A stretch of 54,493 nt of DNA from an uncultured Muribaculaceae bacterium (GTDB lineage: Bacteria > Bacillota_I > Bacilli_A > RF39 > UBA660). Location: the NCBI GenBank assembly GCA_964549115.1, contig CAZJTX010000001.1:1-54493 (forward strand). Direction: 5' to 3'. Position 1 is the stretch's first letter. Each line of letters begins with the position of its first letter. Under the pieces are notes generated by a model. That model saw nothing but the letters and a program-made list of their open reading frames with translations. It was not told the origin of the DNA and did not search any database. Made by a program: the position numbers and the translations under genes. Shown one piece after another: positions 4,465 to 34,684 of the stretch.

Positions 4465-5574
4465 ATGAAATCAATTGGAATTATTTGTGAATTTAACCCA
4501 TTTCATAATGGTCATTTATATTTTATAAATCAAATAAAAAAAATGTATCCCGATTACATTATTATTTTAATATTAAACGGATACTTTTTAGAACGTGGAG
4601 AGATTTCAATTATTTGTAAAGAAAATAAAACAAAAATATCTCTTAACCACGGAATTGATATTGTTGTTGAACTACCCTTTATTTACGGAACTCAAAGTGC
4701 CGACATATTTAGTGAAGCATCTGTTAAACTATTAAATTATTTAAATGTTGAAAAAATAATATTCGGAAGTGAAAGTAATGATATTTCTCTTTTAGAAAAT
4801 GTGGCTAAAGAACACTTAAACAATAAGACTTTTCACAAACTTGTTAAAACCAATTTAAAAAAAGGTTACAGCTATCCTAAATCCGTTGGATTAGCTAGTA
4901 AGTCAAATATAAAAAACCCTAATGATATATTAGGTGTTACTTATATAAAAAGTATATTAAAAAATAAATACAAAATTAAATATGAAACTATTAAAAGAAC
5001 AAGTGATTTTCATGATAATGAAAGTAATAACAATATTGTAAGTGCATCTAATATAAGAGATAAGATAAACAACAATGAAAAGATTGATAAATATATTCCA
5101 AAAGGAGTTAAAAAATATATTACATCTATTAATTATGATTTATTATTTGACCTTTTAAAATTAAAAATAATTACAGATCACAACTTAAATAAATATGTGG
5201 GGGTAAATGAAGGATTAGAATTTAGAATAAAAAAACACATTAATAAAGTTGATAATTATAATGATTTGGTAAAAGCGGTAACAACTAAAAGATACACCCA
5301 AAATAATATAAATAGAACATTTACTCACATATTATGTGGATTGTTAAAAAAAGATTTGAAAAAAATAAAATTTGATTATATTAAAGTACTTGGATTTAAT
5401 AATAATGGTAAATCTTATTTAAATAAAATAAAAAAAGAAATTAAGGCACCTTTAATCGTGGATAAAAAATCTAAAATATATGATTATGAGCTTAAGGCTT
5501 CATTGATATATGATCAGCTTACTAATGGTAAATCATATAAGTTTGAACACAATAACAAACCAATCATAAAATAA
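4465..5574 (+). CDS. tmcAL: tRNA(Met) cytidine acetate ligase / YlbM-type nucleotidyltransferase
   Basis: GIICEFNPFHNGHLYFI N-terminus (HxGH-type nucleotidyltransferase of the UPF0348/YlbM family), about 370 aa. Confidence 0.8.
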   Translation: MKSIGIICEFNPFHNGHLYFINQIKKMYPDYIIILILNGYFLERGEISIICKENKTKISLNHGIDIVVELPFIYGTQSADIFSEASVKLLNYLNVEKIIFGSESNDISLLENVAKEHLNNKTFHKLVKTNLKKGYSYPKSVGLASKSNIKNPNDILGVTYIKSILKNKYKIKYETIKRTSDFHDNESNNNIVSASNIRDKINNNEKIDKYIPKGVKKYITSINYDLLFDLLKLKIITDHNLNKYVGVNEGLEFRIKKHINKVDNYNDLVKAVTTKRYTQNNINRTFTHILCGLLKKDLKKIKFDYIKVLGFNNNGKSYLNKIKKEIKAPLIVDKKSKIYDYELKASLIYDQLTNGKSYKFEHNNKPIIK

Positions 5575-5616: not shown

Positions 5617-5693
5617 TGGAGTCCTCGGAGGGATTTGAACCCCCGACCTAATGCATCGGAAGCATTCACTCTATCCAGCTGAGCTACGAGGAC
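5617..5693 (-). tRNA. tRNA-Arg, anticodon CCG, CCA encoded
   Basis: The reverse complement folds by hand into a cloverleaf: GTCCTCG TA GCTC AGCTGGATA GAGT G AATGC TTCCGAT GCATT AGGTC GGGGG TTCAAAT CCCTC CGAGGAC T CCA. The 7-nt anticodon loop TTCCGAT gives anticodon CCG. Confidence 0.9.
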
Positions 5694-12652: not shown

Positions 12653-12681
12653 ATTATATCATTTTCGAGATATCTTTTCAA
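12653..12681 (-). promoter_or_regulatory. Putative sigma-70 promoter of rpsU
   Basis: Minus strand reads TTGAAA (12681-12676), 17 nt spacer, TATAAT (12658-12653). It lies immediately downstream of the hairpin that ends the peptide operon. Confidence 0.5.
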
Positions 12682-12684
12682 GGA

Positions 12685-12708
12685 AAAAGCCGTCTTAAAA
12701 CGGCTTTT
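12685..12708. terminator. Hairpin terminator ending the peptide operon
   Basis: AAAAGCCGT-CTTAAA-ACGGCTTTT, flanked by an A-run and a T-run. It starts 1-2 nt after the stop codon of peptide B. Confidence 0.7.
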
Positions 12709-12709
12709 T

Positions 12710-12871
12710 TTAGCAATAATTTTTTGATTTTTTTAATTTTATTGCCGAACCTACTATTTGTCCTAATAATAATACAGTTGTCATCAATCTTGATACAGCA
12801 TTCAACATAGTTGCTGTTACTGCTGCACCACCAGATATGTTAGTTAATTCATAATTATTTAATTCTATCAT
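12710..12871 (-). CDS. Double-glycine-leader peptide B (53 aa), candidate bacteriocin subunit; not in ORF track
   Basis: My translation is MIELNNYELTNISGG / AAVTATMLNAVSRLMTTVLLLGQIVGSAIKLKKSKNYC. The leader matches the L..EL..I.GG double-glycine consensus. The mature part is hydrophobic with a GxxxG (GQIVG) and a cationic tail. Its ATG overlaps the stop of peptide A (TAATG). Confidence 0.7.
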   Translation of the reverse strand: MIELNNYELTNISGGAAVTATMLNAVSRLMTTVLLLGQIVGSAIKLKKSKNYC

Positions 12872-13014
12872 TATTTTTTACGACATTTAAGCGGGTTAAC
12901 ATATCCATCTATTATTCCTATTAAAAATGTCAATGCTCCGACTATGCCTACAACTAGGCTCACATTAATACCACCTTTTATTTGGTTTAATTCATATACT
13001 GATAATGTTTTCAT
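12871..13014 (-). CDS. Double-glycine-leader peptide A (47 aa), candidate bacteriocin subunit; not in ORF track
   Basis: My translation is MKTLSVYELNQIKGG / INVSLVVGIVGALTFLIGIIDGYVNPLKCRKK. An AAGGAG RBS sits 4 nt upstream of the ATG, directly after the stop of the 134-aa gene. It has a GG leader, a GxxxG (GIIDG) and a cationic C-terminus. Confidence 0.75.
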   Translation of the reverse strand: MKTLSVYELNQIKGGINVSLVVGIVGALTFLIGIIDGYVNPLKCRKK

Positions 13015-13024
13015 CGTACTCCTT

Positions 13025-13429
13025 TCATATTATTTTTCCAAGTAATTTTTTATATACTCTTTCTTTGTTGTAATACATTTTAATATCTAATAATTCATTA
13101 TTTTTATATTGTTTATCTAAATCTATTATGTAATCTTGATAATTAACCAAGTTATATTCATCTAATTTAATTTCACTAATATTATTTATTGTGAATTTAA
13201 CCTTGTCATTGTTAATACTCATTACCACAGCATCGTTCACTTTTGAGGTATCGTTATACTCAATTGACATATATAACATATTATCTTTATAGTATCCTTT
13301 CGTAATAAATATTGTGTAAATATCTACTGTGAATAAATAACACATAAATATAACAGTTATTATAACTACCACACTATAAAGTTTGTTTTGGGGAGTTAAA
13401 TTTATTAAATCTTGAAATTTATTATACAT
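13025..13429 (-). CDS. Single-pass membrane protein, 134 aa; possible miniature secretion accessory or immunity protein
   Basis: One TM segment (LYSVVVIITVIFMCYLFTVDIYTIFI). Overlaps the ABC transporter stop by 8 nt and precedes the peptide genes, so it is probably co-transcribed. The functional assignment is inference only. Confidence 0.5.
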   Translation of the reverse strand: MYNKFQDLINLTPQNKLYSVVVIITVIFMCYLFTVDIYTIFITKGYYKDNMLYMSIEYNDTSKVNDAVVMSINNDKVKFTINNISEIKLDEYNLVNYQDYIIDLDKQYKNNELLDIKMYYNKERVYKKLLGKII

Positions 13430-15458
13430 AAATAACTCTTTTAAATTCCTTATCTAAATTTTTATGACTAATATAAATAATGGTTTTATCTTTAAATTTA
13501 GTTTTTAAATTGTTAATTATCCTCTTTTCAGTTTTAATATCAACTTCGCTTAAGGCTTCATCTATTATTAACACCTTAAAGTTATCTATCAATGCCCGCG
13601 CTAATATAATTCGTTGTTTTTCTCCCCCAGAAAAATTATTTGAATCCACATTAATATAAGTTTGATATCTCATTGGTTTGGTTTTTACTATCTCAGATAC
13701 ACATGAACAGTTACATATATCCATAAAATAATCCTTAGCTACTTTTTTATGAAAAACAATATTTTGATACAATGTTTCAGAAAACAAGTATTCTCTTTGA
13801 GACACATATCTAATATTATTTCTAATAGTAGATAAACTTAAATCTTTAATGTTGATGTTTCCAAATGTAACTTCACCTTTGTAGTTTAATTCATGTTTAA
13901 TTAAAAGTTTACATATAGTACTTTTACCAGATCCACTTCTTCCTTTTATTAAAACATGTTCCCCCTCATTTATTTTTAAATTATAATTGTTTATTATATT
14001 ATGAATTTTATTATAACTAAACGTTAAATTTGATAATTTAATACCATAACCATTAACTTGCTCTAAAGAACCTATATTTTCTTTTTCTATATTCATAAAT
14101 TCGCTAAGTTTCTCAACTGATGCACTGATAAAATTATATTTTGGGATGTTATCTATCAGATTTTTTACAGGTTCTAAAAAATAATACATTAATGCATTAA
14201 AAGTTATAAGCTCAGAAATGGAAATAGAATTATTAATTAATAATACAAATCCTATAGTATTAACAATATATGTTCCCATTTCGTTTATAAAACTTTTTAA
14301 ATTTAATTGTATATTATTGAACCCCAATAATTTATAACTATCTTTTAAATAAGAAGAGGCACTATCCTCAATATAATTTAAAGCTTCATTAATACCAGAT
14401 ATGTTTTTGATGCTATTTATCATAGAGATGCTTTCAATAAATATAGAAGTGAATTTATTTTCCAACTTTATATTTTTGAGGATTTTTTTATAAATTACTC
14501 CTTTGAATGAAAGACCTAAAATCAAATAAATAGTTAGCAATAACAGTAATATTAAAAACAAAGTCTTGTTTAATAAATATAATATTGGTATTAAACATAT
14601 TACTAAAAGAGAATCTAGTAACAAAGACACAATAATCTCTGAAAAAAGATTTTTGAAATTATTTAAATCATTAATTCTAGCAACTATTTCACCTGTTGTT
14701 CTAGATTGAATTACTTTGGAAGGAAGGTTTAAAACATGATATAAAAAATCTCTTAACAAATATATATCCACATTTTTATTTAGATATAATTCATAATACA
14801 GCTTTAACTTGGTAAACATAATTTTTATACACGTTATAAAGAGAAACAAAATAAATGTTTGTTTTAAAAAATGTTTTCCCAATTCAAAATTATCAATAAC
14901 TACTTTAAAATAATAACCAGTAATTATTGTTGTTATAGTAATGAAAATACTAGCTACAACAATTTTTGATATAAGACTTTTTTCGTTTTTTAAAACATTA
15001 ACAAAAAGAGTTTTTAATTTAATATTTTTTTCATAAAAAACAATTGATCTAGATGGGAATAGTTCTATTAAATTACCAGACCATATATTCATAAAATCAC
15101 TAAAAGATATTATTCTTTTTCCTACTGCTGGATCCATTAACGTTATTTTTTTAGGAGTAATATTATAAATAACTACAAAATGATTTAAATTGTTTTCTTG
15201 AACATGACAAATTGCTGGTAAACTCAATTTTTCTTTTAACAAATGTTTTTTATCTAATTTTATGCCTCTTGAATCAAAACCATATTTAAAAGAAGCATCT
15301 ATTATATTAAAAGCAGTCGTTCCTTCAATATTCGTACATGTATCTTGAATAACTTTTTCTAAAGGAATATTACCACCATGATATTTAACAACAGACAATA
15401 AACATGCTGCGCCACAATCTTTTATATTTTGTTGTTTTACAATAAATGCTTTTTTCAT
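13422..15458 (-). CDS. Peptidase-C39-domain ABC transporter (bacteriocin/competence-peptide cleavage-export type)
   Basis: The N-terminal C39 domain has the catalytic Cys context QQNIKDCGAACLLSV, a later NHFVVIY (His) and LMDPA (Asp). Six-TM region follows. The NBD has Walker A GRSGSGKST, signature FSGGEKQR and Walker B LIIDEALS. Confidence 0.9.
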   Translation of the reverse strand: MKKAFIVKQQNIKDCGAACLLSVVKYHGGNIPLEKVIQDTCTNIEGTTAFNIIDASFKYGFDSRGIKLDKKHLLKEKLSLPAICHVQENNLNHFVVIYNITPKKITLMDPAVGKRIISFSDFMNIWSGNLIELFPSRSIVFYEKNIKLKTLFVNVLKNEKSLISKIVVASIFITITTIITGYYFKVVIDNFELGKHFLKQTFILFLFITCIKIMFTKLKLYYELYLNKNVDIYLLRDFLYHVLNLPSKVIQSRTTGEIVARINDLNNFKNLFSEIIVSLLLDSLLVICLIPILYLLNKTLFLILLLLLTIYLILGLSFKGVIYKKILKNIKLENKFTSIFIESISMINSIKNISGINEALNYIEDSASSYLKDSYKLLGFNNIQLNLKSFINEMGTYIVNTIGFVLLINNSISISELITFNALMYYFLEPVKNLIDNIPKYNFISASVEKLSEFMNIEKENIGSLEQVNGYGIKLSNLTFSYNKIHNIINNYNLKINEGEHVLIKGRSGSGKSTICKLLIKHELNYKGEVTFGNINIKDLSLSTIRNNIRYVSQREYLFSETLYQNIVFHKKVAKDYFMDICNCSCVSEIVKTKPMRYQTYINVDSNNFSGGEKQRIILARALIDNFKVLIIDEALSEVDIKTEKRIINNLKTKFKDKTIIYISHKNLDKEFKRVIYV

Positions 15459-15538
15459 GTTTTTCTCCCTTCAATAATTATTTATCCAAAAGAAGTCATT
15501 ATCCTTTATATTTTTTCAATTATAAAAATTGGTTTTAA

Positions 15539-15566
15539 TTGACAATAATTTCTAAAACATTATAAT
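15539..15566 (+). promoter_or_regulatory. Putative promoter of the 15587 gene (divergent from the exporter operon)
   Basis: TTGACA (15539-15544), 16 nt spacer, TATAAT (15561-15566), then an AAGGAAGG RBS. Confidence 0.45.
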
Positions 15567-15586
15567 TAAACTAAGGAAGGTTATAT

Positions 15587-16243
15587 ATGAAAAACAAAAA
15601 ATCATTACTAGTTGGATTTTTATTTATATTAATATTATTTTTATTTCTATTTTTAATTTTAAATGGATTTTCCAACAAAAAAGCAATACCTACACACGAA
15701 GCTCATAATTATGGCATTATTAAAAATAAAAAGAAAACGTTTATCGTAGAAATTGATGAACATTGTGAAGAAAACAAGCCTTGTTATAAAAAAATTAAAA
15801 ATGGACTACTAGGTAAGAAAAAATACGAAATAAATATTAACTTACATAACGACAAAGAAATTTTCGATACAATAGGTATCAATCAACATCAACTAGAATT
15901 AAACACAGAATCCTATGATCGATTAGAATTAGTGGGAATAATTGACCAAACGTTTTTAATATACGGTTTCAGATCTGGATTTAAAGAAAATCTTTATGAA
16001 TTTGTTGTATACGATAAAGATATAAACCCAGTTGCGTTTTTCCATTCAAATCAACAACATGCTAAATTTGATTTTAAAAAACAGTTTAATTATCAACATA
16101 ATGAGTTAGCCTTATTTTTCTGTAAACAAGAAGAAGATATGCAAAATGTATTAATTAAATATTTAGTTTGGTTTGATAAAAAAGGAATTAAAGATACTAT
16201 TATATCTGAAGAAAAAGTTGAAGACTGTGGTGCACACCAATAA
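15587..16243 (+). CDS. Hypothetical membrane-anchored/secreted protein, 218 aa
   Basis: N-terminal hydrophobic anchor LLVGFLFILILFLFLFLIL followed by a soluble domain containing several Cys. No family recognised. Confidence 0.6.
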   Translation: MKNKKSLLVGFLFILILFLFLFLILNGFSNKKAIPTHEAHNYGIIKNKKKTFIVEIDEHCEENKPCYKKIKNGLLGKKKYEININLHNDKEIFDTIGINQHQLELNTESYDRLELVGIIDQTFLIYGFRSGFKENLYEFVVYDKDINPVAFFHSNQQHAKFDFKKQFNYQHNELALFFCKQEEDMQNVLIKYLVWFDKKGIKDTIISEEKVEDCGAHQ

Positions 16244-34563: not shown

Positions 34564-34684
34564 AAAAAAATGCCCAAGATAACTTGTGCATCTAAAGTCA
34601 TCTTATCAATCTAGCATTACCACCTAACTTAATAGGTTGGTGTGACTTCATAGGGCTAGTCCCTCCATCACTCTTTATAAGATG
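34564..34684 (-). promoter_or_regulatory. SAM-I (S-box) riboswitch with expression-platform terminator
   Basis: Minus strand reads CATCTTATAAAGAGTGATGGAGGGACTAGCCCTATGAAGTCACACCAACC...GGTGGTAATGCTAGATTGATAAGATG, matching the S-box core (CTTATCAAGAG..GGAGGGA.TGGCCC.ATGAA...CAACC...GGTGCTAA...AGATAAG). It is followed by hairpin ATGCACAAG-TTAT-CTTGGGCAT and T7. Confidence 0.85.

Follow-up and report, generated by a model that had tools for sequence, protein, structure and literature searches.

A conserved pair of double-glycine-leader peptides encoded with a C39-peptidase exporter in uncultured gut Bacilli, a candidate class IIb-like two-peptide bacteriocin

The stretch of DNA analyzed here (the window) comprises positions 1 to 54,493 of contig CAZJTX010000001.1 (assembly GCA_964549115.1, placed by GTDB in RF39 and UBA660) and has a GC content of 26.9%. 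Its minus strand carries an operon in which a C39-peptidase ATP-binding cassette (ABC) exporter gene is followed by orf134, encoding a 134-amino acid membrane protein, by two short genes, pepA and pepB, and by a terminator, and the two short genes probably encode the precursors of a two-component secreted peptide resembling the class IIb bacteriocins. Translation of the open reading frames (ORFs) places pepA at 12871-13014 (47 amino acids) and pepB at 12710-12871 (53 amino acids), both on the minus strand, with coordinates, strand, and translations exactly as the initial annotation of this DNA had stated, and the TAATG overlap it described is confirmed, the TAA stop of pepA and the ATG start of pepB having one base in common at 12871. 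A Shine-Dalgarno sequence, AAGGAG, read from the sequence at 13019-13024 (minus), lies 4 nucleotides before the pepA ATG, and GGAG or GGAGG is found likewise upstream of pepA in three related loci (L012, L023, and L024; related loci carry L numbers throughout). No separate Shine-Dalgarno sequence precedes pepB. Both precursors start with a 15-amino acid leader that ends in GG and fits the pattern M..L...EL..I.GG, being MKTLSVYELNQIKGG in pepA (12970-13014, minus) and MIELNNYELTNISGG in pepB (12827-12871, minus), where the start codon overlaps the pepA stop. The predicted mature pepA peptide (12874-12969, minus) has 32 amino acids and consists of a hydrophobic helix with a GIIDG motif, the sequence NPLKC, and a basic tail (grand average of hydropathy 1.03, side-chain charge +3, one Cys), and the predicted mature pepB peptide (12713-12826, minus) is a 38-amino acid amphipathic helix with a GQIVG motif and a C-terminal Cys (side-chain charge +5, one Cys). 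Computation reproduces the leader lengths, mature lengths, charges, and single cysteines first reported. The operon is closed directly after the pepB stop by an intrinsic-terminator-like hairpin with an 11-bp stem (12684-12709, minus; folding free energy -13.1 kcal/mol, z = -3.3), an equally stable fold occurring in 1 of 200 shuffles.

pepA and pepB are genuine genes that co-evolve, are coupled in translation, and specify double-glycine leaders. A regular expression for such leaders applied to every ATG-started ORF of 30-90 amino acids in all six frames of the window matches pepA and pepB and no other ORF, and in first-order Markov resamples leader-pattern ORFs arise by chance 0.02 times per window on average. 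Both reading frames are kept in a second species, represented by the metagenome-assembled genome (MAG) GCA_964461465.1 and two Logan contigs (L011-L013), which has the same gene order at ∼70% nucleotide identity. Against L011/L012 the ratio of nonsynonymous to synonymous substitution (dN/dS) is 0.13 for pepA and 0.16 for pepB, with 0.17 for the ABC exporter, 0.44 for orf134, and 0.05 for rpsU, all calculated on synonymous sites that are essentially saturated. Frame conservation and substitution pattern had been named at the outset as the check on coding capacity, and both come out in its favor. Mature pepB is identical at 33 of 38 residues in the ∼70%-identity locus and is more conserved than its own leader and than YbeY, and both leaders of this nearest relative end in AG instead of GG. 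The exporter gene of the MAG is broken at ∼1170-1210 of L011 by a run of N and a duplicated segment and is called as a 571-amino acid protein lacking the C39 domain; because L012 is intact over the same region, the break is taken as an assembly artifact (a scaffolding gap) and not as a real truncation. The exact pepA and pepB sequences are already present in a public protein collection from at least 16-18 contigs of the same species, all nameless, so that the earlier description of the genes as unannotated is corrected. Few peptide variants are seen within the species, and this polymorphism was not used as evidence because loci L001-L010 had been chosen for identical pepA and are biased.

The exporter gene (13422-15458, minus) encodes a PCAT-type peptidase-containing ABC exporter of 678 amino acids with a C39 peptidase, a transmembrane domain, and an ATP-binding domain (Pfam Peptidase_C39, 6e-34; ABC_membrane, 1.5e-24; ABC_tran, 1.8e-25). 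It matches PCAT1 (PDB code 4ry2) over its full length with E = 1e-92, and the alignment shows identical catalytic residues, namely the Cys of DCG (Cys15), the His of HFVVIY, the Asp of DP, and the oxyanion Gln, from which the C39 domain is judged to be catalytically intact. The C39, transmembrane, and ATP-binding architecture of TIGR01193 is present at a score of 374 bits against a cutoff of 523.85 bits, and the exporter scores 296 bits on NF045998 (Mbov_0121 family peptidase domain-containing ABC transporter; cutoff 500).

orf134 (13025-13429, minus) overlaps the ABC stop by 8 nucleotides and encodes a single-pass membrane protein with a single N-terminal hydrophobic helix. The window protein has no family match in Pfam or NCBIfam, gives nothing significant in a PDB profile search, and does not match NF045999 (MAG1140 family protein) even at E ≤ 10; its single-sequence AlphaFold2 model (predicted local distance difference test score, pLDDT, 39.8) was discarded as unusable. 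Homologues fill the same slot in ∼15 related loci, and 8 of 15 of them match NF045999 below threshold (best 5.4e-6, up to 25.3 bits against a cutoff of 35), two that were examined singly aligning over nearly the whole 126-position profile. Since NF045999 is the accession neighbor of NF045998, the family on which the exporter scores, the orf134 protein most likely works with the exporter as its membrane partner, and a role in immunity is a lesser possibility. The export module is in this respect like the Mycoplasma Mbov_0121/MAG1140 pair, and it differs in that its scores lie under both cutoffs and orf134 of the window itself has no match; a literature search on Mbov_0121/MAG1140 found nothing relevant, the two papers that mention Mbov_0121 giving no function. 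An orf134 homologue is not detected in several loci. In five loci without one, the gene that immediately precedes the exporter, in the same orientation, encodes a multi-pass membrane protein of the CmpB-like type, PF06541 (L023, 3096-3806; L024, 2283-3005; L031, 3120-3905; L048, 3146-3925; L063, 2488-3225), the Pfam assignment resting on the three of the five that were tested (E down to 6e-53).

The peptide family is almost invisible to word-indexed homologue searches, which returned for pepA only itself, for pepB one 70% relative, and for orf134 only same-species variants, and it was reached only via synteny, using Era-anchored loci, and by an exhaustive pepB profile search. Scanning the contigs of representative genomes with an orf134 alignment found nothing, and the window's own species is apparently absent among the representatives searched. 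The nearest GTDB representatives, fetched with the Era protein of the window, are gut MAGs with Era identities of at most 68%; they are labeled uncultured Bacilli, Tenericutes, 'Mycoplasma sp. CAG:776', 'Firmicutes bacterium CAG:460', and Candidatus Caccenecus and presumably belong to RF39/RFN20-type orders. A cassette composed of a C39-ABC exporter, usually a membrane protein of ∼126-142 amino acids, a pepA-like gene, and a pepB-like gene lies directly upstream of rpsU in ∼21 of the ∼51 loci that have at least 7 kb upstream of era, and also in L089, giving at least 22 species-level MAGs of uncultured gut Bacilli. Searched against 1.84 billion proteins, the pepB profile collects 69 clusters (50% identity) at E ≤ 1e-3; ten of them were looked up, and all ten are metagenomic and nameless.

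The two peptide genes are found as a pair throughout this material. The A-then-B order behind a homologous exporter is seen in 22 GTDB-representative loci, and the pair recurs in five further metagenome contigs, the exporter being visible in three. L094 and L096 contain the C39-ABC gene, an optional gene for a 145-amino acid protein, pepA, pepB, rpsU, and yqeY, and in L097 a truncated gene, taken as the exporter from its position and lacking recorded domains, precedes pepA, pepB, and a gene for a PAP2 phosphatase; L099 and L100 are short contigs with the pair, on which the exporter is cut off or not identified. pepA and pepB are adjacent in 29 of 29 loci examined, with a spacing of -16 to +24 nucleotides in the loci checked, and wherever sequence is available upstream of pepB, pepA lies within a few bases. 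An apparent loss of pepA in L023 and L024 and of pepB in L089 was rejected, the frames being intact with ATA or ATT starts behind good ribosome-binding sites: pepA has an apparent ATA start 7-8 nucleotides after GGAGG in L023 (5977-6099) and L024 (∼5160-5300), and pepB of L089 (∼2230-2400) has an apparent ATT start. As these intact leader frames offer no ATG, GTG, or TTG, non-canonical start codons are suggested for the genomes concerned. On P0073, a 506-bp ENA contig, a 102-amino acid ORF is an in-frame fusion of pepA and pepB with the pepB leader kept as a linker and two GG sites; the fusion may exist in nature or may stem from an error of assembly or sequencing.

Alignment of 22 pepA sequences (alignment A4) and 73 pepB sequences shows that the leader consensus is maintained across both families. 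The pepA leader always ends in G and has L4 and G(-2) in nearly all members, and in the pepB leader G15 is invariant and G14 nearly invariant. The mature part of pepA has three invariant residues, G33 (the first G of GxxxG), P41, and C44, the last two within a ..NP..C.. tail, and the second G of GIIDG is replaced by A in three members of the group around L074. Mature pepB keeps G41 (second G of GxxxG) and C53 without exception and G37 almost without exception, the conserved motif being GxxxGSxIRR followed after 6-7 residues by Cys. In 24 of 24 tabulated pairs each mature peptide contains a single Cys, and its position in the alignment is constant. The GxxxG motifs and the single cysteines, which the initial annotation had described for one locus, are in this way borne out across the family.

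Every weak database match obtained with the peptides points to models of double-glycine or class IIb bacteriocins. On TIGR01847 bacteriocin_sig (cutoff 15.7) the two peptides of the window reach 13.5 and 13.7 bits, and some family members pass (17.6 and 16.4). On NF038034 (lactococcin G-beta/enterocin 1071B, cutoff 37 bits) the window pepA scores 13.7, the best family member reaching 29.1 over residues 4-38, and NF038035 also matches weakly. TIGR03949 (lactobin A/cerein 7B, cutoff 21.5 bits) gives 13.4 for pepA and 16.7 for pepB of the window, a best family-member score of 19.8 bits among seven pepA sequences scanned singly, and best E-values of 6e-6 (pepA) and 1.7e-5 (pepB) in whole-alignment scans. 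PF10439 Bacteriocin_IIc does not match the window peptides and matches 13 of 22 pepA and 17 of 73 pepB sequences weakly (best 2.6e-4). PDB profile searches with pepA and pepB found nothing significant, only a leader-level likeness to CtA, the substrate of PCAT1, and in a plasmid database the sole pepB match is a gene annotated as lactobin/cerein-type on Streptococcus suis pBM407, at a marginal E = 0.1. A literature search found no two-peptide bacteriocin with an interchain disulfide, no RF39 bacteriocin, and none of the motif strings.

Among characterized systems, lactococcin G and enterocin 1071 (NF038034, NF038035, and PF11632) offer a close template, with two adjacent double-glycine-leader genes, mature peptides of ∼30-40 residues, GxxxG motifs, and a dedicated C39 ABC exporter for processing, and some pepA-family members match the G-beta model over leader and core. 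The window cassette differs in lying below the model cutoff, in having no immunity gene, and in the invariant single Cys of each peptide, the lactococcin G and enterocin 1071 peptides not being known to contain Cys; here the exporter is upstream in the same operon, and the locus is chromosomal and core-like. The lactobin A/cerein 7B group (TIGR03949 and PF10439) has the same leader type and a glycine-containing hydrophobic core and is the commonest weak match for both peptides, but all pepA and pepB scores lie under the 21.5-bit cutoff. The pBM407 peptides are without the GSxIRR...C tail and the conserved Cys and come from a multi-peptide locus with small membrane ORFs. PCAT1-CtA of Clostridium thermocellum (PDB codes 4ry2 and 7s5j) has an exporter that aligns at full length with its catalytic residues kept and a substrate leader that weakly resembles those found here, whereas the cargo is unrelated apart from the leader; for CtA itself no biological role is known.

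Taken as precursors of a two-component secreted peptide, that is a class IIb-like two-peptide bacteriocin of a nameless family, pepA and pepB are given their most probable reading, one held with somewhat more confidence than doubt. In the proposed mechanism pepA and pepB would be transcribed with the exporter as one operon, and translation of pepB would be coupled to that of pepA through the observed overlap, giving roughly equimolar synthesis. The intact catalytic residues and the leader consensus predict that the C39 domain recognizes the 15-amino acid leaders, cuts after GG, and exports both peptides, with orf134 most likely serving as a membrane partner, so that a 32-amino acid hydrophobic peptide and a 38-amino acid amphipathic cationic peptide would leave the cell. 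Outside, the two helices may act jointly through GxxxG packing in a target membrane as class IIb bacteriocins do, and the invariant Cys near each C terminus might form an interchain disulfide fixing a parallel heterodimer or be needed as a free thiol. Producers without the receptor may, speculatively, need no immunity gene.

Several observations weigh against this reading. No Pfam or NCBIfam model is matched at its curated cutoff by the window pepA or pepB, and antimicrobial activity is wholly a prediction. An immunity gene is a normal component of class IIb loci, and no class II immunity-like gene is found in or beside the operon, where pepB is directly followed by the terminator and rpsU. 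The main group of pairs, including that of the window, is cationic with summed charges of +4 to +10, but a divergent subgroup of six members (pepA ending ..NPERCN and pepB ending ..LCPLx) is neutral to anionic, with summed charges of -4 to +1. ABC identity tracks Era identity across 231 locus pairs (Pearson r = 0.87, Spearman 0.77), and the cassette keeps a fixed chromosomal position beside rpsU, unlike typical strain-variable bacteriocin loci. This co-divergence and constant position point to long vertical inheritance rather than frequent horizontal transfer and indicate a vertically inherited, core-like cassette in a clade of uncultured low-GC gut Bacilli, and such long vertical inheritance is unusual for bacteriocin loci. 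The two-peptide bacteriocin originally proposed is partly supported, and more strongly than inspection of the one sequence had allowed, in its coding genes, leaders, exporter, pairing in 29 loci, GxxxG motifs, and one Cys per peptide, with the missing immunity gene, the vertical core-like locus, the anionic subgroup, and the unreached model thresholds on the other side.

At the L097 locus a PAP2-family phosphatase gene (1564-2208) stands in place of rpsU after the peptide pair. UppP, the phosphatase that acts on undecaprenyl pyrophosphate, is the reported target of bacteriocins of the lactococcin G type, and by analogy with this target the phosphatase could be a bypass-type immunity gene.

The main rival is a less likely alternative in which the exported pair is not a weapon but a lineage-specific physiological component of the producer. 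The hydrophobic pepA peptide would stay in or return to the cell's own membrane and pepB would associate with it, possibly via a disulfide, in a role in the envelope, adhesion, signaling, or host interaction. The lack of an immunity gene and the co-divergence with Era fit such a component, as do a locus that stays syntenic by rpsU despite different downstream genes (vanZ-ybeY or yqeY), the strong purifying selection under which mature pepB exceeds YbeY in conservation, the neutral or anionic subgroup, and the resemblance of the exporter and orf134-like partners to a Mycoplasma gene-family pair (NF045998/NF045999) of unknown role. Set against it, the sequence resemblance, though weak, is all to bacteriocin families, and the double-glycine leaders, GxxxG motifs, cationic tails of the main group, and dedicated PCAT exporter make up the class IIb template; a pheromone is disfavored by the lack of a sensor kinase or regulator beside the cassette in the window, and a precedent for a surface heterodimer of this kind was not found.

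The conserved cysteines raise a further question that cuts across both readings. With one Cys per peptide any disulfide here must be intermolecular. The Cys of pepA stands 7 residues after GxxxG with a Pro break between, and that of pepB follows GxxxG after 12 helical residues, a placement that makes an interchain disulfide geometrically plausible, speculatively so. Both GxxxG-to-Cys tails are shorter in the L074 group (6 residues in pepA and 10 in pepB), yet in L099 and L100 the pepB tails are longer (14 and 13) and the pepA tail is still 7, so there is no consistent co-variation in tail length. This weighs against a disulfide, as do the lack of a thiol-disulfide oxidoreductase gene nearby and the anoxic gut inhabited by the producers. 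In a low-confidence AlphaFold2 model of the P0073 fusion (pLDDT 57) each mature part forms a single long helix; the model gives no coordinates for a Cys-Cys distance, so it has no bearing on the disulfide. In pediocin PA-1 the C-terminal Cys is part of an intramolecular disulfide, and the only Cys of lactococcin B has to be in the reduced state; by analogy with the latter, a free thiol needed for function is an equally simple and equally speculative reading of the single Cys. Gallocin A, as cited in PMC11564875, is a two-peptide bacteriocin with intramolecular disulfides and shows that the two-peptide type can depend on disulfides. The pepA and pepB peptides are like these Cys-dependent class II bacteriocins in their conserved near-C-terminal Cys, which is there important for activity, and unlike gallocin A and pediocin PA-1 in having only one Cys each. 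A combined proposal, tentative and rather doubtful, is that the pair forms a covalent heterodimer through an interchain disulfide and is a vertically inherited core trait of a reduced-genome clade of uncultured gut Bacilli, with an export module related to the Mycoplasma Mbov_0121/MAG1140 pair; it would then be either the first covalently linked class IIb-type bacteriocin or a non-weapon complex of the producer's own membrane or surface, serving physiology or interaction with a host or partner.

It is improbable that pepA and pepB are two independent one-peptide (class IId) bacteriocins, or a bacteriocin with a helper or pheromone, that merely share an operon and exporter. Many class II loci hold several unrelated double-glycine peptides, as in the S. 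suis plasmid locus L101 with at least eight, and direct evidence of an interaction between pepA and pepB is lacking; against this, the loci examined all carry a single gene of the pepA type and a single gene of the pepB type, in a constant order and, where measured, at the close spacing given above, GxxxG motifs and a single Cys are kept in both, and on P0073 the two are fused as one ORF. That the two frames are chance openings in AT-rich intergenic DNA, which yields many spurious ORFs as short as these, is effectively refuted by the comparative data, with frames kept under low dN/dS at ∼70% nucleotide identity and homologues in dozens of species, besides a leader pattern expected 0.02 times per window and genes flanked by a ribosome-binding site and a terminator.

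The surroundings of the operon are as follows. The divergent intergenic region upstream of the exporter (15459-15586) is the presumed site of the operon promoter, with a weak consensus match; the candidate is a minus-strand TTTATA-17-GATAAT at 15526-15498 (9 of 12 consensus positions), and a plus-strand TTGACA-16-TATAAT at 15539-15566 is a perfect match that faces orf218. Promoter-like sites show no enrichment over shuffles. orf218 (15587-16243, plus), divergent from the exporter, encodes a protein with an N-terminal hydrophobic segment and no family match; in the related species it has 30% identity, dN/dS 0.41, and four Cys kept, and it is not found next to the cassette in other lineages. Downstream of the terminator come rpsU, then a vanZ-like gene, ybeY, dgkA, era, and recO. 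Between terminator and rpsU (12653-12681, minus) lies a strong promoter match, TTGAAA-17-TATAAT, extended at the -10 element with TG, which suggests that transcription of rpsU is probably separate from that of the peptide operon, although the two are constant neighbors from lineage to lineage. Over the whole window Rfam at gathering threshold finds only a SAM (S-box) riboswitch (34600-34683, minus, 62 bits) and one tRNA gene (5620-5693, minus).

If the pair is an active two-peptide bacteriocin, it would define by sequence a new class IIb lineage, and the invariant Cys in each chain raises the structural question of a covalent heterodimer or a thiol-dependent mechanism, for which the 29 paired sequences collected are enough to start a co-evolution or AlphaFold-Multimer analysis. 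The source is a group of abundant uncultured gut Bacilli whose ecology is almost unknown, and a conserved secreted toxin could help to explain how these reduced-genome bacteria compete or gain nutrients and could yield narrow-spectrum antimicrobials. If the pair is not antimicrobial, its deep vertical conservation by rpsU, the missing immunity gene, and the connection with PCAT modules of Mycoplasma would point to an unrecognized role for PCAT-exported peptide pairs.

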